This document shows positions 18,856 to 28,513 of a DNA stretch of 64,000 bases, one piece after another. A program made the translations under genes and the position numbers. The stretch lies in assembly GCF_003019035.1 (NCBI RefSeq), contig NZ_CP027447.1, one strand, 5' to 3'. The stretch is from Escherichia coli. Lineage in GTDB: Bacteria; Pseudomonadota; Gammaproteobacteria; Enterobacterales; Enterobacteriaceae. Below the pieces are notes generated by a model. It saw only the letters and a program-made list of their open reading frames with translations, ran no database searches and was not told the origin of the DNA. Numbering within the stretch: the stretch's first letter is position 1; each line of letters begins with the position of its first letter.

Positions 18856-20160
18856 GGGTAACGCAGGGAAAGATTACGAAAGCCCGCTCCCCGCAAGGAC
18901 TGACGCCAGATAGTTTCTGTCCATGGCTGCTTTTCGCATCTTACGTCTTAACCCTGCCTTGAATACCTTATCATTCGTCAAAATATTAATAGCGATGTGC
19001 CGTATCCCTGAAAATAATTCTGCTGCATTTCCTCTTCTTATTTTGCAGTCGTCTTCATTCATTACCACGTCCAGACGCCAGTGCAGCTTATTCTCCACGT
19101 GCCAGTGGTTTCGGATTGCTGTGGCGAACTTCTCTGCGGTTAAATCAGCAGAACTGATATAATATCTGACCGTCATTTCGGGCTCTTTCTTTTGTTCTGC
19201 TATTATTGACCGAAAGGAGACTGCCACGCATAATTTCTTCAGACCTTTCCATTCAAACGTGAAATCAATAAGTTCATCAGGGACATCGCAAACAATGTGA
19301 AGACGGATTTCTTCTCTGCCGTGACTCTTTTCACTCATTGCGTAACTGTCATGCTCTGGATTATTTAATTCTTTCAGCGGAAATTTTTCCTCGAAGGCTT
19401 TATTTAGCCGCCCCTGGTTTCCTTTTACAGCGAATAAATAATCACCTCCCTGTTTTTGTATCTTCTCTGCAATATCTTTCTGGCAACCCATCGCATCAGT
19501 TGTGATGATTTTTCCTTTAATATCCAGCATGTTAAGAAGTTCTTGGATAGCTGTAATCTCATTGGATTTCTCATCCGTCCTGATCTGTCCGATGACCAGA
19601 CTATGCATTGTTGAGAACGCACTAATGACATGAATCGCTCCCTTGCGGCGACTCTTGTCATAAGAGTGCCGGAGCGTTTTTCCATCAATTGCAATGACGC
19701 CTTTATCATCTGAAGAATGGCAGTCACGCATCCAGTTAATAAAGCACTCGTGAAATTTTGCAGGACTGATACAGGATACAACTCTGGCAATGGTATCGTG
19801 AACAGGAATACCATTTTCAAAATCACCATATTGCTTCAAAAAATCGAGATGTGTTTCCCCAAAATCCTCTATATCTTCCCAGCCTTCTGCACCAGAAATA
19901 ACGGCACAAATAGTCAACAGTAGAATATCCGACAATTTATGTTCCACTTTCCAGGCTTGTCTGTACTCGGGAATAACAGAAATATGTTCTATCAATTTTT
20001 TAAGTACCATTTTGTTCTCCTTAATTATGTAAGGAGTATTTGATCATGTATAAGCAATAAAAAACAGCTTCAGGTAATGAGGAATATCTCAATTTTTAAA
20101 CATAAAATGCGAATTATTTAGTACAAAAAAGCAGCGTTACGTGATCTTTCCCTGTGTAAT
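18856..20160 (-). mobile_element. H-repeat / ISAs1-family insertion sequence (about 1.3 kb)
   Basis: Contains the 378-aa H-repeat-associated transposase; imperfect terminal inverted repeats centred on CAGGGAAAGAT (18861-18878 versus reverse complement of 20139-20156, 15/17 identical); boundaries approximate to about 5 bp. Confidence 0.75.
18874..20010 (-). CDS. ISAs1-family (H-repeat-associated, YhhI-like) transposase
   Basis: 378-aa [53 protein letters not shown]...; near-identical to the recalled E. coli H-rpt protein family. Confidence 0.9.
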
Positions 20161-20834
20161 CCCCCAGCTAAATCATGAACTTTTTGAGCCATTTTACTTA
20201 ATTCAGGGCAGGCTCCTAAACCTAATGGATCTGTGAAGCAACACGGATTCAGCACATAACCATAAGTGTTTAGTCCACCCAATACACCCAGGGGGTCACT
20301 CACCAGATACATCCCGGTCTCCGGCTCGTAGTACCGGAACCGGTTATAGCACAGCCCTGACTCCGCATCCCGCCACTGCCCCGCATACAGCAGACCGGGG
20401 TCCGCTTCTGCGTCTCGCTCCCCGCGCGGGTCCGGGTAGTCCCTGTCTGCGCTGACGCTGAGTGCCAGCCCCCACAGGCTGGTCTGCTCCGCACGCCACA
20501 CCACGTTACCCTGACTGTTAAAGAGCATCACCGGGCGGCCTGTCAGGTCGCTTACCGCATGGCTGGTCCGCGTCACCCACTGCGGGGCCACGGACGGGTG
20601 CGGCTGCCGTACCCGGCTGAACTGCTGGCTTATCAGCTCAAAGCCGTTAAACACCAGGTACCGCACACTGTACAGTTTATCATCGCGGTATTCCCGGATT
20701 TCCGCAATAGTGTCGCCGTCCCACAGATATGTGATGCGGAGGGCTTTTTGTTTGCAGCGTTTCTCTGTCCGTCTGCCACTGGCGTCGTGGCAGTATTCCC
20801 ACTGCTCACCCCGGGCGCTGCGGTAGCCGATCAC
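20118..20834 (-). pseudogene. orphan rhs C-terminal fragment (last about 206 aa of Rhs core plus a truncated alternative tip)
   Basis: Homologous to residues about 1260-1470 of the upstream Rhs through the PxxxxDPxGL core end (DPLGL); no upstream ORF or canonical start; only about 19 native residues follow DPLGL before the reading frame runs into the IS terminal repeat. Confidence 0.7.
20217..20834. repeat. direct repeat copy 1 (rhs core 3' end, orphan copy)
   Basis: About 620 bp, high-identity copy of 21694-22311 visible in both nucleotide and protein alignment. Confidence 0.75.
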
Positions 20835-20863: not shown

Positions 20864-21253
20864 TTATTTAATCCAGTAAGCTAATCTCTCACCAATCTTC
20901 AAATTTTCTCTTTTGTAATAAAATACAGTATCAAAGTTAATGGATATTTTTTTCGCAATAACTTTGAATTTCAATTCAAATTCCGAATAAAACTCTAATA
21001 CTAACATTTCACGAGCATTGTCAGTGCAACTTGATAGCTTAATAAACTCCTCATTAAGATCGCATGACCAGTCCATAACACCGCTAATATAGCATGGCGT
21101 GTCTATTATTATTTCCAGTGTGTGATAGTAAGAAAGGTCATCACTCCCGGAAATAATCAAGCGATTATGTTCATAAAGAAAAACTGAAAAATCCAACCAA
21201 CTTTCTTTCCAATTATGGTGCTTTATATCATTAATTATGTTTTGCTCACTCAT
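20864..21253 (-). CDS. candidate cognate immunity protein for the Rhs C-terminal toxin
   Basis: 129-aa AT-rich ORF; its ATG overlaps the rhs TGA stop in a 4-bp ATGA overlap; positional analogy to rhsI genes; no family recognised from sequence. Confidence 0.6.
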   Translation of the reverse strand: MSEQNIINDIKHHNWKESWLDFSVFLYEHNRLIISGSDDLSYYHTLEIIIDTPCYISGVMDWSCDLNEEFIKLSSCTDNAREMLVLEFYSEFELKFKVIAKKISINFDTVFYYKRENLKIGERLAYWIK

Positions 21254-24200
21254 GGAATAGTTCCTGTAGGCAATGGTATATGAGTATCATTTGCAGCTCC
21301 TGGATTATAATTCGGACTTTTAGTTTTCAAATCAGATGTATGATGCCAACTGCCATCAGGAGAACCATACTCCCAACCATAGCCTTGATTAGTCGCAGGA
21401 TTTGTTCCACTTTGGCTTCTACCAATCCTATATATGGGGCCATTGGCAGAATTACTCCCTGCTGGAGCAGTAGGGTTTACATCATGAGCCCTTACTTCAT
21501 ATTTATAATTTCCGACGGTGAATTTTTCTTTAAATTTTATAGGGTAGTTATGCCCAGACAAGCCTTGCCGATGTAAAGCATAATTTAACACATCCTGCGG
21601 TGAGGTATTTTTAATTGCTTGATGCGCTTGTGCTGCTGTCATACCTTGAGAACGATTGTATTTATACCAATCATACATCACAGGACATATAGCTAATCCC
21701 AAAGGATCAACATACCCCAGCGGATTAGGCACATACCGGTAAGTCTGCTCACCCCCCAGCAACCCCAGTGGATCACTCACCAGGTACATCCCGGTTTCCG
21801 GCTCGTAATACCGGAACCGGTTATAGCACAGCCCCGATTCCGCATCCTGCCACTGCCCCGCATACAGCAGGCCGGGGTCGGCTTCCGGGTCCAGCTCCCC
21901 GCGCGGGTCCGGGTAGCCGGTGTCTGCGGGCAGGCTGAGTGCCAGCCCCCACAGGCTGGTCTGCCCCGGTCGCCAGACGGTTTTACCTTCACTGTTAAAG
22001 AGCACCAGCGGACGGCCCGTCAGGTCGCTCACCGCATGATTCGTTCGCGTCACCCACTGCGGGGCCACGGACGGATGCGGCTGCCGTACCCGGCTGAACT
22101 GCTGACTCAGCAGCTCAAAGCCGTTAAACACCAGGTGCCGTACGCTGTACAGTTTATCATCCCGGTATTCCCGCATTTCCGCAATACTGTCGCCGTCCCA
22201 CAGATACGTAAAACGGATTTTCTTCCGGTCGCAGCGTTTTTCCGTCCGCCTGCCGCTGGCGTCGTGGCGGTATTCCCACTGCTCACCCTGTGCGCTGCAA
22301 TACCCGGTCAGCTGGTCCCGGCTGTCCCACCGGAACCGCTCTGTTTCCGGGCGGTAGCCGTCACGGTGTCTGGTGCGGCTGACCATCCGGCCTGCGGCGT
22401 CATAGCTGTAGTCTGTGTTTCCGGTCTGTTTCAGCCGGTGGCCGCGCTGATACATGTCAGTATCCACGCTTATCCGGTGCCTGCCCGCCGACTGCGCCTT
22501 CAGGTAGCCACAACTGTCATAGCCATAGGACTCATCGCCTTCGCCATAGCCCAGCCCGGTGCCTGAGGCTGTCACCGCCGTGACCTGGCCGTTCCGGTCC
22601 AGCCGGTACTCCCGCCGTGTTTCCCGTCCGTAGTCTTCCCGGCTGGTGACAGCCGACATATTGCCCGCGCTGTCGTAACGGTACTCCCGCACCAGTGAGG
22701 GGAGCAGTCCGCCCCATGTGGCTTCCGCCGGGAAAAGTCCGGCGCGCTGGCTGGTAAGCTGACCGGCTGCATTCCAGCCCTGCTCACAGGCAAAACCCCG
22801 GTTACTGTGCCGGAGCACTTCACGTCCTGCCTCATCACGGCTGAACGTCAGCGTCTCATCCCCCGGCAGGATAACCTCCGTCAGTTCTCCGGCGGCGTTG
22901 TAGCGGTAGGTGGTTTTCAGCAGGGATTCACCGGGGTGTCTGTCGCGTTCATCTTCCGGTGGCAGGATACAGCGGATGACGGTGTGTTCATCGGGGTGGT
23001 GGTATTCAATGGCCCGTCGGCCCTGAGTGGTGACATTCACCCGCCCGCGTTCGTCATAGCCGGTGCGCTGTGATGTACCGTCCGGGCTGAAGATACCCGT
23101 CAGCCTGCCGGATTTGTCATAGGCATACTGCGTTTTGCCTTCCGGCGAGATGACTTCTGCCAGGCGGCCTGCGGCGTCCCGGCTGTAGAGGATAGTTTCC
23201 TCCAGGCCGTTAACCCTGGCGGTACAAAGGCCATCGGCGTCATAGCGGTAACGCCAGACCACGCCGCCCCAGTCACGCTCTTCCGTCACCCGTCCACAGT
23301 TGTCCAGAATATAACGGTATGACTCGCCCTGCGGATTGATGACTTCTGTCAGTTGCAGCGTGTCTTTATCGTAGCGGTACTGCCAGCGGTGGCCTTCACC
23401 GTCCGTTCGCGCCACCGGCAAATCGAACGGGCCGTATTCCATCGTCCAGACAACGCCGTTGCCGTCCGTCCAGGCCAGCAGGTTGCCGTGGCGGTCATAG
23501 CGAAATCCTTCCGCGCCGGTGCCAGTGCGTTCAAGGCCGCTCAGTTTATGGTGCTGCTGCCACCGTAACCGCACTGACTGACCGCCGGGGCCGCGCATCT
23601 TCACCGGCAGGTCGTGACCGCTGTATTCGGTGTGGTGTTCACGGCCCATCACGTCGGTGAGTGTTTCCGGCCGGTTGTGGTGGTCGTACTCTATGCCCAG
23701 ACGCCGTTCATCCTGGCGGAATATCCCCGACAGCAGCCCCTGCGGCGTGTACGCCAGCCGGGTCTCTTCGCCCTGTGGCGACACCAGACTTACCGGCAGG
23801 CCGCGTTCATCACACTGCTGCGTCCACATCTGCCCGGCAGGGTCGGTGATGTTGCTGAGCAGGCCGCGCTCATCATAGCAGTACTGCCACTCCGCACCGT
23901 CTGCCGCCGTGTAACGGCTTAACTGACCGTGTGCGGCGTTGTATTCAAACTTCTCCACCCGCCCGGCAGGGGAGTGGCGGGCCAGCAGGTGATGGAATTC
24001 ATCCCATTCATACATGGTGGTGCTGCCGTCCGGCGCTGCTTCCCGCAGAATATTGCCGTCAGGATCATAGTAATAACGGTGAATGCCCTTGCCGTCCGTC
24101 ACGGTGGTGCAGCCGTCACCATAGTCCAGCGTGGCGTTGTAATAGCCCTCCGCCCCGGTGACGGTCACGCACCGGCCCTGTGCATCGTAGGTGAAACGGC

Positions 24201-26103
24201 TCCACGTCTGGTCGTTATCGGACCAGCGGATGATCCGGTCCGCAGCGTCGTACTCATAAAACAGGTGGTAGTCCAGCCGCGCATCCGCTTCTGTCAGCCG
24301 CCCCCGCGCATCCTGTTCGTAGGTCGCCAGCATCTGTATGCCGTTATCCGTACGGTGAATGGCTTTCAGGTAGCCGCTGGCATGGTACGTCAGTTTAAGC
24401 CGGATCCCGTCGGTGTGACTGACACCCATGATGCGGTACTGGCTGTCGCGCTCAAACGTGATGCGGTTGCTGGCGGTGTCGCTCATCCCGCCCAGCATGT
24501 ACATCCGGTCTGCGGGGCTGTGTGCCAGACGGTCATCGCAGGTATCGTCAGTCACCGGGTGGCGCAGGCGCATTCCCGGAAAGGCGTCATAAAAGAAGCG
24601 GCTGCTCAGTGCATCACGGTCGAACAGCTCCAGGTAATCGTCGCGGCGGCGCAGAATGTACTGGGCGTGATACGGGTTAACCGCCGTATCACTGTCACCG
24701 TCGAAGGCAAATCTCAGCGTGGTTCCCTGGCTGATGATATCCACCCGGTTTCCCTGTTCACGCACCCAGGCGTATTCGCTCCAGGAGTCGCTCCAGCCCA
24801 CGCCCGTCAGACCATGCAGCGGCAGTACAGAACTGTGGAAACGGGTGAAGGAGAGGGGGAGTGTCTGGCCCAGCGTAAAGTCGGTACGTTCGTCGCAGTA
24901 TGCGCCGGTTACCGGATCGACAGGATCTGTTACCCATCTGATGACTTTATTGGCAATACTTTTTAACGACTTACCTGTTTTCCCCAGCAACGCGCCGAGC
25001 TTTGCCCCCAGCAGCTTCCCGCTTTTCCCCAGCAGGTTTCCCAGTTTGCCGAGTTTCGCCAGATTCCCCAGTTTTCCCAGCAGTCCCGCGGGCGGCAGAA
25101 GATAGCTGGCTATCGTTATTCCCCCCAGGATCATTCTCTGCCACGGCGGGAACTCCGGCTGGATATCCAGATAGGTCACCTGTTCACCGCCAATAAAGAC
25201 GTCCGGCGAACCTTCCACGATTGCCGCGCTGCACTCCAGTTTGTCCCCTTTGCGTGCGGCAGTCTGATTGTTGATAAAGACGTTGCTGCTGCCCTGGGCT
25301 ATCCTCGGTGGTTTGTTCTCCTTGTCGCAGAGCGCCGTGTCCTCACCGGCTTCCGGGAAATCCACGTCTTTTTTGATTTCGCCACGCCCGCCCACCATGG
25401 TGGCAAACTCCATTAATACCGGACCGGCGGGAAACAGAAGCGATGCGCCGGCGCTGACGCGATCCATAATACCGGCATTGCTGTCCGTCAGGGTGATAAC
25501 AGCGTTCCCCCAGGCCTTCGCCAGTGGTACTGCTTTTTCCGCTGCCGATTCAAGCAGGTCAGTGGCAATATCACCCCATGAGGGTTCCCCCTGTGGTGGA
25601 GAGGGTATTGCTTCAGTCAGGGGAGGAGGGGGAAGGGTGACGGCGGCCCTGGCAGCGGGCTTTCCGTTAATGTTTACATTTTTAGAACCAGTATTGATGG
25701 CCCCGTCCGTGTCACAAAAACTGTTTATCCATGATTCAAGCTGGTTCTGTTTCTCCTCCACATAATCACTCGCCTTATAGCTGGCATACATCAGCGCAGG
25801 CACCAGAACCAGCGCATAAGGGCCGGTGGCACAGGCGGCCATAATCAGGCAACCTTCTGCGATGGTCACTATCGCCCCCAGCACGGCCCCTGCCAGCGCC
25901 CCCAAAAAACTCTTGTGCTGAATTTCATCGCCCAGCCTGGCTGCGGGGGGGCCAGACTTTTTTGATGCCAACATCTGTGCAATGGCTTTGTCGTTGGCTG
26001 CCCGTTTCATCTGGCTGGCGACCATCGCCTGCTGTGACAGCATTCGCATTGCCAGCGTACCGCCTGCGGTCGCTCCCTGTGGCCCGCCTGGTCCTTCACT
26101 CAT
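21250..26103 (-). CDS. rhs: prePAAR/PAAR-domain Rhs-family polymorphic toxin (T6SS effector) with variable C-terminal toxin tip
   Basis: 1617-aa ORF: N-terminal AARLGDEIQH (prePAAR-like AARxxDxxxH), hydrophobic helices, PAAR-like segment (ARKGDKLECSAAIVEGSPDVFIGG), long YD/Rhs repeat region, core terminating at DPLGL, then a 147-aa low-GC tip. Confidence 0.9.
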   Translation of the reverse strand: MSEGPGGPQGATAGGTLAMRMLSQQAMVASQMKRAANDKAIAQMLASKKSGPPAARLGDEIQHKSFLGALAGAVLGAIVTIAEGCLIMAACATGPYALVLVPALMYASYKASDYVEEKQNQLESWINSFCDTDGAINTGSKNVNINGKPAARAAVTLPPPPLTEAIPSPPQGEPSWGDIATDLLESAAEKAVPLAKAWGNAVITLTDSNAGIMDRVSAGASLLFPAGPVLMEFATMVGGRGEIKKDVDFPEAGEDTALCDKENKPPRIAQGSSNVFINNQTAARKGDKLECSAAIVEGSPDVFIGGEQVTYLDIQPEFPPWQRMILGGITIASYLLPPAGLLGKLGNLAKLGKLGNLLGKSGKLLGAKLGALLGKTGKSLKSIANKVIRWVTDPVDPVTGAYCDERTDFTLGQTLPLSFTRFHSSVLPLHGLTGVGWSDSWSEYAWVREQGNRVDIISQGTTLRFAFDGDSDTAVNPYHAQYILRRRDDYLELFDRDALSSRFFYDAFPGMRLRHPVTDDTCDDRLAHSPADRMYMLGGMSDTASNRITFERDSQYRIMGVSHTDGIRLKLTYHASGYLKAIHRTDNGIQMLATYEQDARGRLTEADARLDYHLFYEYDAADRIIRWSDNDQTWSRFTYDAQGRCVTVTGAEGYYNATLDYGDGCTTVTDGKGIHRYYYDPDGNILREAAPDGSTTMYEWDEFHHLLARHSPAGRVEKFEYNAAHGQLSRYTAADGAEWQYCYDERGLLSNITDPAGQMWTQQCDERGLPVSLVSPQGEETRLAYTPQGLLSGIFRQDERRLGIEYDHHNRPETLTDVMGREHHTEYSGHDLPVKMRGPGGQSVRLRWQQHHKLSGLERTGTGAEGFRYDRHGNLLAWTDGNGVVWTMEYGPFDLPVARTDGEGHRWQYRYDKDTLQLTEVINPQGESYRYILDNCGRVTEERDWGGVVWRYRYDADGLCTARVNGLEETILYSRDAAGRLAEVISPEGKTQYAYDKSGRLTGIFSPDGTSQRTGYDERGRVNVTTQGRRAIEYHHPDEHTVIRCILPPEDERDRHPGESLLKTTYRYNAAGELTEVILPGDETLTFSRDEAGREVLRHSNRGFACEQGWNAAGQLTSQRAGLFPAEATWGGLLPSLVREYRYDSAGNMSAVTSREDYGRETRREYRLDRNGQVTAVTASGTGLGYGEGDESYGYDSCGYLKAQSAGRHRISVDTDMYQRGHRLKQTGNTDYSYDAAGRMVSRTRHRDGYRPETERFRWDSRDQLTGYCSAQGEQWEYRHDASGRRTEKRCDRKKIRFTYLWDGDSIAEMREYRDDKLYSVRHLVFNGFELLSQQFSRVRQPHPSVAPQWVTRTNHAVSDLTGRPLVLFNSEGKTVWRPGQTSLWGLALSLPADTGYPDPRGELDPEADPGLLYAGQWQDAESGLCYNRFRYYEPETGMYLVSDPLGLLGGEQTYRYVPNPLGYVDPLGLAICPVMYDWYKYNRSQGMTAAQAHQAIKNTSPQDVLNYALHRQGLSGHNYPIKFKEKFTVGNYKYEVRAHDVNPTAPAGSNSANGPIYRIGRSQSGTNPATNQGYGWEYGSPDGSWHHTSDLKTKSPNYNPGAANDTHIPLPTGTIP
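21253..21693 (-). other. Rhs C-terminal toxin domain (147 aa after DPLGL); candidate WHH/HNH-type nuclease
   Basis: Abrupt drop in GC content after the DPLGL junction; motif GSWHHTSD...NYNPGAAN...THIP near the C-terminus resembles the His-His...Asn...His arrangement of HNH/EndoVII-fold toxin domains. Confidence 0.45.
21694..22311. repeat. direct repeat copy 2 (rhs core 3' end, main gene)
   Basis: Homologous to 20217-20834; substrate for homologous recombination that would swap toxin tips. Confidence 0.75.
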
Positions 26104-26122: not shown

Positions 26123-26584
26123 TCAGCGCGGCTGGTCCTTTTGGATGTCATTCTCCGGTGGCAACGGGGTGAAGCTCTTTATCACCTCCAGCAGCATCGT
26201 CTTTTGACTGTTCTTCAGGGATAAGGAGGTGCTGAAAGTGAAGGTCAGCAGCGTATCTCCACGCCGCTGGAATACGGCTATCTGGCTAATCCGCCCCTGA
26301 TTCCCTTCATCTTCCGGACCGTTCCAGGAATAATCCAGCAGCCAGGCCGGGGCCTCTGCCAGAGTGATTTCCCGGCAGGCATGTTCGGTGTACCCATCAA
26401 GTTTGCCCTGGTACAGCGCCAGCGTTTCCTGGTACAGCTCTGGTGTCAGGGTTCCCTGTGGAACGGCTTCGCGGGTAATGACCAGGTTGATGCCACTGTT
26501 ATCTGTGGACACCAGGACCTGCATTGACTGATCCTGCCATTGAGACGGCAGTTGAATGTGGCCTTCATTAAAAGTGAACTGCAT
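26123..26584 (-). CDS. DUF1795 / Eag-family effector-associated chaperone
   Basis: 153-aa ORF between vgrG and the prePAAR-Rhs gene, tightly spaced; size and position typical of EagR-type chaperones. Confidence 0.75.
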   Translation of the reverse strand: MQFTFNEGHIQLPSQWQDQSMQVLVSTDNSGINLVITREAVPQGTLTPELYQETLALYQGKLDGYTEHACREITLAEAPAWLLDYSWNGPEDEGNQGRISQIAVFQRRGDTLLTFTFSTSLSLKNSQKTMLLEVIKSFTPLPPENDIQKDQPR

Positions 26585-26611: not shown

Positions 26612-28513
26612 TCAGTTGATGAAAACAGAACCGCCCACGATGGTGATGCCATCCTTCGACAGCCTGATTACCGTCGATTCCCCGACCTGTAGCTGTATGC
26701 CATCCGGCGTCAGCGCAATTTTGCTTTCCTCCACGGCCAGCAAAATTTCCTTAATCGCCGTATAAGCCTGTATACCGTCGCCTTCGCCACCATTGTTTAC
26801 AGCGTCAACATGCACCGAACCGGCAATCGTGCCTCTGTCCTGAAAGACATCCTCAGATAAAGACCCTTTCAGTACTCCGGTGATCTTGTGGCCTTTTTCC
26901 ACCGTAAGAAGGCGGTTACCTTCCTGGATCGTGACCGTCTGGTCATTTTTTACGGTTTCGCGGTGATCGTGTTTTACGGTGGTGGTACGGTCGTTGAGCA
27001 CTTCGGTATCCATGTTCTTCTGCGCGTGGATGTAGACCTGTTCTCTCCCTGTCGCATCATCAAACTTCAGCTCATTAAATCCGCTGCCCATGTACGTTTT
27101 GGAGCGGATGGTCATCTGCGTCTTTGTTCCCGGCAGGCTGCCGGGGGTGCGGTTTTCCTGGTGGTAGGTGCGCCCCATAATGATCGGCTGGTCCGGATCG
27201 CCGTTGAGGAAGTCTACAATCACTTCCTGACCCACACGCGGTATCGCCAGGTGGCCAAAACCGGTGCCTGCCCACGCCTGTGCCACACGGATCCAGCACG
27301 AACTGTCTTGGTCTGCCGGGTTATAACGGTCCCAGTTGAACTTCACCCGCACGCGACCATGTTCGTCGCAGAAGATTTCCTCGCCTGCCGGTCCTGTCAC
27401 GACAGCGCTCTGCGGGCCGTCGACCAGCGGTTTCAGCAACGGCTGTGGTCGCCATGTTCTGTCTGCCGGGATCACCGCAAAATGGTTCTCCAGCGCCGTC
27501 CCCGCTCCCTGCCGTCCTGGCACCGCCTGTGGCTGTTCGCCGTGCAGTTCACTTGCCACCACCTGCCATTCCCGGTTCAGGTTCGCCTGCGGATGCCCCG
27601 TCAGCACAATTCGTCGTCCCGGCCATATCTCCGGCGAGCGACTCATTCCCCGCGCGGTTTCTGCATTGTTTCGCCAGCCGTCCATCTGCCAGCGGGCAAA
27701 GTTCTGCCCGTGGGCACCCTTGAAACGTCCGGGGTAGTCATACACTTCATACTGCGTGCGCTGGTAGTCCTGGTGCTGGCCTTCCTGTTCAAAACGTCCG
27801 GCCCAGCCGGGGCGTTTAAAGGTGTAGTCTTTGGTCACCACGGAAGAAGGGCGGATTTGTGCGCTGTAGCGGAACTGGCTGATGCAGAGGGTGCTCACCT
27901 CGGTACGGGTGTTCGGGTTCCATGGGATTTCAAAAGATTCGGGCAGATGGCGGACTGTGTCGCACAGCACCAGGCTCTGGTCGGTACTTTTGTAAGCATG
28001 CTCCTCATAAAAGAAGATGCCTTCCTCCGCCGCCATCCGGCACAGGAAATCGTAATCAGTCTCACCGTACTGGACACAAAACTCACGGGAAGGATGCGGC
28101 TCGCTGAACAGCGGACTCCATTCGGTCACCCCGTTTTCCTGCAACATCGTGCCGAGGATGCTTTTGATGTCCTCGTTCTGGAAGATACGGAAGTTCTGGC
28201 GCAGACCGGCACGCCACAGCGGCGGGTGCACCTTCATGCTGTACAGCATCTGGTTTTTGTCGTTCTCCCCCAGTTCAAACCAGGTCACCACGCCTTTCAC
28301 CCGGCGCTGTACTTCATCGCCCTGCCATATCGTCAGGTAGGCCATTTTGTCCAGCACCTGCGCAAATTCAAGGGAGAGAAACTGCTGGCTGACCAGGGAG
28401 AGATCGAGGGAAAAGAGCGAAGAGAGTGACTGGTTCAGATGAAAGGAAACCACCGCAAAAGCATCCGGCGGCAGGCCGTCCACTTCCAGTGTGAAACGTA
28501 ATCCGGTTGACAT
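26612..28513 (-). CDS. vgrG: type VI secretion spike protein VgrG
   Basis: 633-aa ORF starting MSTGLRFTLEVDGLPPDAF... with gp27/gp5-like regions and a C-terminal beta-helix-like segment; canonical VgrG N-terminus. Confidence 0.9.
   Translation of the reverse strand: MSTGLRFTLEVDGLPPDAFAVVSFHLNQSLSSLFSLDLSLVSQQFLSLEFAQVLDKMAYLTIWQGDEVQRRVKGVVTWFELGENDKNQMLYSMKVHPPLWRAGLRQNFRIFQNEDIKSILGTMLQENGVTEWSPLFSEPHPSREFCVQYGETDYDFLCRMAAEEGIFFYEEHAYKSTDQSLVLCDTVRHLPESFEIPWNPNTRTEVSTLCISQFRYSAQIRPSSVVTKDYTFKRPGWAGRFEQEGQHQDYQRTQYEVYDYPGRFKGAHGQNFARWQMDGWRNNAETARGMSRSPEIWPGRRIVLTGHPQANLNREWQVVASELHGEQPQAVPGRQGAGTALENHFAVIPADRTWRPQPLLKPLVDGPQSAVVTGPAGEEIFCDEHGRVRVKFNWDRYNPADQDSSCWIRVAQAWAGTGFGHLAIPRVGQEVIVDFLNGDPDQPIIMGRTYHQENRTPGSLPGTKTQMTIRSKTYMGSGFNELKFDDATGREQVYIHAQKNMDTEVLNDRTTTVKHDHRETVKNDQTVTIQEGNRLLTVEKGHKITGVLKGSLSEDVFQDRGTIAGSVHVDAVNNGGEGDGIQAYTAIKEILLAVEESKIALTPDGIQLQVGESTVIRLSKDGITIVGGSVFIN

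Follow-up and report, generated by a model that had tools for sequence, protein, structure and literature searches.

The Escherichia coli contig NZ_CP027447.1 (RefSeq assembly GCF_003019035.1) carries, in the 64,000-nucleotide stretch of DNA analysed here (the window), an rhs gene whose protein product contains a segment composed mostly of lysine, leucine and glycine, called the KLG segment below. Comparison of sequences gives good support for placing this segment at the centre of the postPAAR region of a prePAAR-type Type 6 Secretion System (T6SS) Rhs effector, that is, in the stretch that runs from the PAAR domain to the N-terminal autocleavage site. From N- to C-terminus the protein comprises a prePAAR motif, a first transmembrane domain (TMD1), a split PAAR domain, the postPAAR region, a plug, a YD-repeat cage and an Ntox30 toxin. 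The kind of element is already known (Ahmad et al., 2020; Jurenas et al., 2021; Gunther et al., 2022); none of the papers found mentions its E. coli KLG form. The segment is probably more than a passive linker, and the repetitive DNA that encodes it is a by-product of the peptide and of the codon usage of the gene.

A preliminary description made from the DNA letters had pointed out a low-complexity Lys/Leu/Gly stretch in Rhs, and its composition confirms this. The peptide quoted there, LGKLGNLAKLGKLGNLLGKSGKLLGAKLGALLGKTGKSLKS, is found exactly in Rhs at residues 342-382 (24958..25080, minus strand), while the numbering attached to it (residues 337-377, positions 24970-25095) was off by about five residues. 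The 41 residues that start at residue 340 include 33 L, G or K. In 2000 shuffles the mean maximum was 16.9 and the absolute maximum 24. The same span is the entropy minimum of the whole protein, at 2.33 bits; shuffles never fell below 2.89. The position proposed for it earlier, between PAAR and the Rhs shell, agrees with the Pfam matches to PAAR (residues 267-310) and to the DUF6531 plug (393-461); residues 311-392 fall outside all Pfam and NCBIfam models. The KLG core begins with a triplet-like part of LGK, LGN and LAK units (342-356) and continues with a heptad-like part that contains a predicted glycine zipper, G362-G366-G370-G374 (GxxxGxxxGxxxG), recognised as a sequence pattern. The KLG segment has an isoelectric point (pI) of 10.9, there are nine Lys in residues 342-382, and residues 342-392 carry a net charge of +11.

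Structures were predicted with AlphaFold2 (AF2) for residues 320-1478, using a 43-sequence alignment, and for residues 1-400, using 64 sequences. The former model has a cage with a predicted local distance difference test score (pLDDT) >90, while residues 320-388 score 26-40; there 336-356 is coil, and 357-375 and 380-385 are helical. The latter has helices at 338-355 and 360-392 (pLDDT 51-69). The hydrophobicity of residues 360-392 has a periodicity peak at 100 degrees (P 0.001). In this predicted helix Lys and Arg face one side, Leu, Ile, Val and Trp face the opposite side, and G362, G366, G370 and G374 form a stripe. Structure prediction had been proposed as a check on the segment, and it returned low confidence for a stretch that lies outside every curated domain model.

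An exhaustive search of 50%-identity representative proteins gave 830 matches. Among Rhs-length homologues, 55-135 residues separate the end of PAAR from the cut motif and 55-96 residues separate the PP motif from the cut. A comparison of homologue lengths had been suggested as well, and the PAAR-to-cut length does differ between genera. Because the length varies, no domain model applies and AF2 confidence is low, the segment is not an invariant, ordered part of a known domain. The post-PAAR regions span a range from basic ones rich in Lys, Arg, Gly and Ala (net +6 to +18; Kyte-Doolittle mean mostly <1.6) to hydrophobic Gly-zipper ones (Kyte-Doolittle mean 2.0-2.6), which often contain a GEGSxGQ motif and resemble the second transmembrane domain (TMD2) of class II effectors. 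The E. coli region is of the basic type, and no other member of that group is as rich in Leu or as regular. In 16 of 17 basic postPAAR segments, taken from representatives that are at most 50% identical, the mean hydrophobic moment over 18 residues is higher than in shuffles of the same composition; the combined Fisher P of 1e-20 overstates independence because the basic segments are related. Amphipathicity, one half of the earlier 'flexible or amphipathic linker', is thus borne out by the periodicity at 360-392 and by the moments in homologues. P0084, with five matches to the segment, proved to be an unrelated Gln/Gly-rich repeat protein and was discarded.

A phmmer search of PDB sequences aligned residues 254-497 to Rhs1 of Photorhabdus laumondii (7pq5) with an E value of 1.3e-35. 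The alignment matches EFPPWQRMIL...LLPP to EFSAWERAIL...LVPP and DP/VD to DP/ID, the slash marking the cut. Both proteins have the same order of elements: PAAR, a hydrophobic helix ending in PP, a basic Gly/Lys stretch, an amphipathic helix and the DP-(I/V)D cleavage motif. Both have adjacent DUF1795 Eag and VgrG genes and a strongly positive net charge. The PP motif lies 56 residues before the cut in E. coli and 69 in Rhs1, and the sequence in between is barely alignable, the E. coli stretch being far more regular and richer in Leu, with its LGK/LGN triplets and four-Gly zipper. Unlike Rhs1, the E. coli protein also has a 97-residue insertion inside PAAR and a 53-residue leader.

In Photorhabdus, the PAAR-to-cut stretch was named 'postPAAR' and shown to be a second EagR-binding site; the isolated region was pulled down by EagR (Jurenas et al., 2021; PMC8636562). 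This paper is the only place in the literature where we met the term. Residues 226-275 of Rhs1 are labelled 'TMD2' in its Supplementary Table 1, and cross-links were reported between EagR S117 and K252, between EagR S74 and K266, and, in large number, joining K226-K275 with the prePAAR N-terminus and with barrel K518/519 (PMC8636562). Both K252 and K266 fall in the part of Rhs1 that aligns to the KLG segment. The conserved hydrophobic helix that precedes it aligns too (EFPPWQRMILGGITIASYLLPP in E. coli, EFSAWERAILIAVEFLVPPS in Rhs1), and this motif recurs in homologues. AF2 predicts the E. coli helix at 320-335 with pLDDT 83-91. Its 19-residue Kyte-Doolittle mean is borderline, at 1.18 for 323-341 in a profile taken every third residue and 1.62 in a reconstructed segment lacking one Pro. 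All six variable codons among E. coli alleles in residues 307-341 are synonymous.

By sequence, the KLG segment occupies the position held by TMD2 in small prePAAR effectors. The class II TMD2 of Tse6, Tas1 and Tne2 (Ahmad et al., 2020; PMC7773334) and the E. coli segment both follow PAAR directly after a PE(V/F)PxW exit motif, both are Gly-rich with GxxxG spacing, and both are encoded beside an Eag chaperone gene. The TMD2 of Tas1 overlaps the segment in a phmmer alignment, in the positional sense. The two differ in hydrophobicity: the 19-residue Kyte-Doolittle mean over residues 342-382 is at most 0.64, with nine Lys, against more than 2.0 for class II TMD2. The GxxxxGxxLxGxxxD motif of class II effectors (r4 in Ahmad et al.) had no regular-expression match in Rhs residues 1-500. 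As low complexity makes profile comparison unreliable, we claim positional equivalence to TMD2 and not homology. In the scheme of Ahmad et al. the 1617-residue Rhs is, unlike class II effectors, a single-TMD class I protein (PMC7773334), and it has four class I features: the prePAAR motif, a TMD before PAAR, PAAR with YD repeats and a toxin, and an adjacent Eag gene. On a fifth, the lack of a TMD after PAAR, the hydrophobicity of the post-PAAR helix is borderline, as noted above. Another parallel is the N-terminal glycine-zipper region of Tde1 of Agrobacterium, whose GxxxG motifs are needed for the toxin to permeabilise the membrane and translocate (Ali et al., 2023; PMC10240207). Tde1 and the E. 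coli Rhs are both T6SS toxins with a cytoplasmic site of action, and in each a run of GxxxG motifs lies in the part that serves delivery and is covered by a chaperone or adaptor. The two have no sequence relationship, and Tde1 is a cargo effector with a Tap1 adaptor rather than a PAAR-Rhs protein.

On balance we lean slightly towards the view that the KLG segment is a conditionally folded, cationic, amphipathic element, which would be shielded by Eag in the attacking cell and become membrane-active or pack against other helices in the prey, and which would serve as a tether as well. The description as a linker keeps its place in this account, and its flexible half is incomplete, since it leaves out the postPAAR or 'TMD2' role, the helical amphipathicity and the GxxxG stripe. 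A cationic, Gly-rich stretch of about 50 residues would have no stable fold alone and would form amphipathic helices (about 338-355 and 360-392) with a Leu face, a Lys face and the GxxxGxxxGxxxG stripe. It would belong to the N-terminal fragment, which by homology is severed from the cage at D393-P394/V395. In the attacker, an acidic Eag dimer made from the upstream gene may cover both the segment and the hydrophobic post-PAAR helix; the pI of 4.6 of Eag is complementary to that of the segment. Eag would be lost after firing, whereupon the Lys face could bind the anionic inner membrane of the prey and the Leu face could insert. The glycine stripe may then pack against TMD1 and aid passage of the Ntox30 toxin across the membrane. 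Throughout, the segment would also tie the PAAR tip to the cage.

Several points weigh against this account. Poor conservation across genera and variable length would also fit a spacer under compositional constraint alone. AF2 confidence is low both in the cage model, where 336-356 is modelled as coil, and in the N-terminal model. Residues 342-356, with their LGK/LGN/LAK triplets, have a period near 3.1 and not 3.6. The helix at the EagR site of Photorhabdus more likely corresponds to the upstream hydrophobic helix (E. coli 320-336) than to the basic stretch, and Lys-directed cross-links show proximity, not binding. The segment is too weakly hydrophobic for a transmembrane helix, and its membrane activity is wholly inferred.

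A simpler explanation, which we regard as unlikely though a serious contender, is that the segment is a passive flexible tether by which the 120-kDa cage hangs beside the VgrG-PAAR tip. Length and solubility would be all that matters and low complexity would reflect relaxed constraint. The coil and low pLDDT of the AF2 models, the lack of coverage by domain models, and the wide range of length and weak conservation of sequence among homologues all suit a tether, and in the papers on RhsA the connection from PAAR to the plug is regarded as a linker (PMC8765631). The E. coli alleles speak differently. Within the species the KLG peptide is nearly invariant and its length is fixed. Over the 33 core codons, seven intact alleles have six sites with synonymous changes only and three residue changes (G346K, K350R and G374S), and there is no indel; the core is under purifying selection within E. 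coli. A tether also leaves unexplained why amphipathic periodicity is retained in 16 of 17 diverged homologues, and it fits poorly with the four-Gly zipper and with Leu making up 21% of the postPAAR region, which is unlike typical flexible linkers. Finally, in Photorhabdus Rhs1 the counterpart of the segment cross-links to EagR, and postPAAR alone binds it.

The C-terminal end of the quoted peptide requires separate treatment. Residues 375-394 have a hydrophobic moment of 0.62-0.65, and 379-392 are the most amphipathic stretch (0.65). In E. coli this cassette exists in two forms of equal length, KTGKSLKSIANKVIRWVTDP and RTKNALKNTYNVLKKFIKDP, which have six of 20 residues in common. Between proteins carrying one form and the other, residues 342-374 are identical at 32 of 33 positions and residues 395-468 at 69 of 74, so that both flanks are at least 93% identical. 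Since the cassette forms differ while the flanks match, the last eight residues of the quoted peptide (375-382) belong to a separately evolving unit. The KLG core itself travels with the PAAR/TMD/Eag module. The autoproteolysis site follows the cassette. P394 and G400 do not vary among the 43 aligned sequences, and in the phmmer alignment P394/V395 falls on D288-P289/I290 of Photorhabdus Rhs1, in which the N-terminal fragment ends at P289 and a D288N change abolishes the cut (PMC8636562). Because it aligns with this mapped site, the E. coli cut is predicted between P394 and V395.

In RhsA of Pseudomonas protegens a seal peptide (268-275) and an amphipathic anchor helix (289-302) precede a cut at P305, and so lie 30-37 and 3-16 residues before it (Gunther et al., 2022; PMC8765631; PDB 7q97). 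By analogy, E. coli residues 375-394 are likely the counterpart of the anchor helix. One could then suppose that residues from about 358 to 392 lie inside the cage, as a seal peptide plus anchor helix that passes through the plug and keeps the N-terminal fragment, once cleaved, attached to the inner wall of the cage. The spacing in RhsA, the high moment of 379-392, the independent variation of the cassette, and the cross-link of Photorhabdus K282, near the cut, to a toxin that the authors' model places inside the cage (PMC8636562) are all in keeping with this. We nevertheless consider it doubtful for the segment as a whole. AF2 given the entire cage left residues 320-388 undocked, though the low pLDDT noted above makes the model uninformative on docking, and Photorhabdus K266-K275 cross-link to partners on the outside (prePAAR S2 and EagR S74). 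The RhsA alignment over this region is mostly gaps, and the likeness to its seal and anchor covers E. coli residues from about 375 to 392 and not the KLG core. Threading into the cage is probably confined to residues 375-392. It would account for no more than the last third of the quoted segment, where it would complement the Eag-shielded amphipathic element and not replace it.

The preliminary description had further suggested that the DNA encoding the segment could be a site of slipped-strand length variation. The reiterated plus-strand units that it named do exist: CCCAG occurs six times in 138 nucleotides, against 0.18 expected from the window-wide rate, and TTYCCCAG occurs five times. These motifs are the reverse complement of the Leu-Gly codons CTG-GGN. 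Codons in the segment are mixed, with CTG, CTC, TTG and TTA used for Leu and all four used for Gly. A contingency locus, in which reiterated DNA promotes slipped-strand mispairing that changes the length of the segment or switches the gene off, could appeal to the recurrence of these motifs, to the one weak array reported by Tandem Repeats Finder (period 9, 5 copies, 75% matches, score 48, 25036-25080), and to database entries that are frameshifted or truncated nearby. It is extremely improbable. For k = 6-12, the DNA repeats its own k-mers no more than do re-encodings of this peptide that follow the codon usage of the gene (P 0.30-0.45), and the longest exact repeat is of 12 nucleotides, with its copy 45 nucleotides away and not in tandem. 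Neither Tandem Repeats Finder nor an exact-repeat search found a perfect or near-perfect tandem unit in the KLG DNA. A 301-nucleotide query across the segment had matches in 2174 E. coli genomes; among 60 rows sampled evenly down the ranking, none showed a length change (record span equal to query span in 60 of 60), and nine alleles compared base by base had no indel in the segment. None of the disruptions seen is a gain or loss of a repeat unit. The suggestion of slippage is therefore unsupported, and annotators should read the KLG low-complexity stretch neither as a site of phase variation nor as the boundary of a gene. An antisense open reading frame on the plus strand (24719-25105, 128 residues, rich in Pro, Ser and Phe) was rejected as a gene and is taken as a by-product of the repeat, because it lies entirely within the rhs coding region.

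Disruptions near the segment were seen in several database records. In a word-indexed protein search, nearly all matches were fragments or frameshift products. A run of six C at 25121-25126 (six G on the coding strand, codons 326-328) is the frameshift point of several database fragments, and one cluster of 302 sequences terminates after codon 339. These frameshifts may be sequencing errors or true pseudogenes. In at least one genome, H29, the match stops at about 25091, next to an IS3 family transposase gene, and Shigella sonnei has a one-nucleotide deletion at about codon 357 (about 25035).

Should the KLG segment prove to work as a membrane or chaperone element, it would give access, by mutation of a short stretch, to the exit of the toxin from the cage and its crossing of the membrane in E. 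coli, and would blur the division of prePAAR effectors into one-TMD and two-TMD classes. If it is a tether only, the finding is ordinary. Several competing models have been published for the exit of Rhs toxins from the cage and for their crossing of the prey inner membrane. We also offer, as a speculation that we think improbable on present evidence, that enterobacterial class I Rhs proteins are two-element translocators. Their basic postPAAR would have evolved from TMD2, with hydrophobic insertion giving way to a charge-driven binding of the membrane like that of antimicrobial peptides. This postPAAR would be held by a second Eag dimer through complementary charge, be released with the N-terminal fragment, and be needed for the toxin to cross the prey inner membrane, and classes I and II would form a continuum. 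Seven homologues (P0081, P0103, P0164, P0166, P0162, P0094 and P0083) are full-length prePAAR Rhs proteins of 1390-1510 residues with a hydrophobic Gly-zipper after PAAR, and some of them have GEGSxGQ. According to Ahmad et al. (2020; PMC7773334), the TMD region of large effectors is confined to the part before PAAR, so these proteins fit the class I/II division poorly.

The features of the locus are collected in Table 1.

Table 1. Features of the rhs locus, with positions in the window and residues of Rhs where they apply.
Feature	Residues	Position	Strand	Basis
VgrG spike gene		26612..28513	-	Pfam Phage_GPD, Gp5 and related models; RefSeq annotation
Eag chaperone gene (DcrB/DUF1795 family)		26123..26584	-	Pfam PF08786, 96.8 bits; RefSeq 'DcrB-related protein'
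rhs gene	1617 residues in all	21250..26103	-	open reading frame list, Pfam/NCBIfam models, AF2
prePAAR motif and TMD1	TMD1 about 64-110	25774..25944	-	regular expression, Kyte-Doolittle, AF2
Acidic helical insertion splitting PAAR	157-253	25345..25635	-	alignment, AF2
C-terminal half of PAAR	254-306	25186..25344	-	Pfam PF05488 at 267-310; PDB relatives 4jiw, 7pq5
PAAR exit and conserved hydrophobic post-PAAR helix, PEFPPWQRMILGGITIASYLLPP	307-341	25081..25185	-	
Core Lys/Leu/Gly segment	342-374	24982..25080	-	sequence, composition, periodicity
Amphipathic helix before cleavage site	375-394	24922..24981	-	hydrophobic moment, allele comparison
Predicted N-terminal autoproteolysis motif, D393-P394/V395-D-P-V-T-G400, and plug start	393-400	24904..24927	-	alignment
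Candidate immunity gene, 129 residues		20864..21253	-	open reading frame list; start overlaps rhs stop by 4 nucleotides
Orphan rhs C-terminal fragment		20118-20834		downstream of rhs
ISAs1-family transposase		18874-20010		downstream of rhs

The family assignments of Rhs rest on matches to PAAR (PF05488, 54.5 bits), to RHS repeats (PF05593, 249.7 bits) and to TIGR03696, and on Ntox30 at residues 1527-1612 (41.8 bits). The Eag gene is directly upstream of rhs and its product is acidic, as noted above. Its sole sequence relatives in the PDB are EagT6/PA0094 (E 1e-5), which chaperones an effector with two TMDs, and Salmonella SciW, the class I example, gave no match to it among PDB sequences at E < 0.01. 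The 129-residue open reading frame downstream of rhs matched no Pfam or NCBIfam family and is a candidate immunity gene by its position, which is typical of rhsI genes. A near-identical RefSeq record has the order vgrG, eag, rhs, small open reading frame, orphan rhs fragment and ISAs1, in an island bounded by cusS and nfrB. An in-silico study of strain EDL933 described an island with vgrG1 (z0707), eagR (z0706) and rhsF in the same gene order (PMC7216683), and we take it to be the present island because O157:H7 genomes carry the module at about 96% identity. The window is chromosomal DNA of E. coli. The first 1404 nucleotides of rhs, encoding the N-terminal part, are present at 93-99.9% identity in 2225 of 5426 complete E. 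coli genomes. About 40% of complete genomes of the species have the N-terminal Rhs module, O157:H7 and other pathogenic lineages included. A scan of genome contigs for relatives in other species returned one locus (L003; JAIJJM010000894.1, 1-1154) and gave no cross-species series of lengths. It is a contig of 1154 nucleotides binned as 'Collinsella sp.' that encodes an Rhs N-terminus 89% identical to the E. coli copy, and it is probably bin contamination.

Upstream of the postPAAR region, the prePAAR motif AARLGDEIQH (residues 54-63) was found by regular expression and agrees with AARxxDxxxH; Pfam prePAAR_I (PF25799) scores 22.4 bits, slightly under its cutoff of 25. The 19-residue Kyte-Doolittle mean of TMD1 is 1.6-2.13 across residues 65-105, and AF2 predicts helices at 66-92 and 97-127. 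Foldseek comparison of the N-terminal AF2 model with the PDB recognised the PAAR fold alone. The insertion in PAAR is about 97 residues long, with a pI of 4.2, a Pro-rich lead-in and AF2 helices at 176-206, 212-223 and 227-237, and it is missing from Photorhabdus Rhs1 in the phmmer alignment. Unlike the remainder of the N-terminal module, it has mostly nonsynonymous changes among E. coli alleles (11 of 14 variable codons). The prePAAR motif begins unusually late in the E. coli Rhs; most of the homologues checked have its start among their first 10 residues. The leader that precedes it (residues 1-53, 25945-26103) has a long AF2 helix at 17-47 with pLDDT up to 95.

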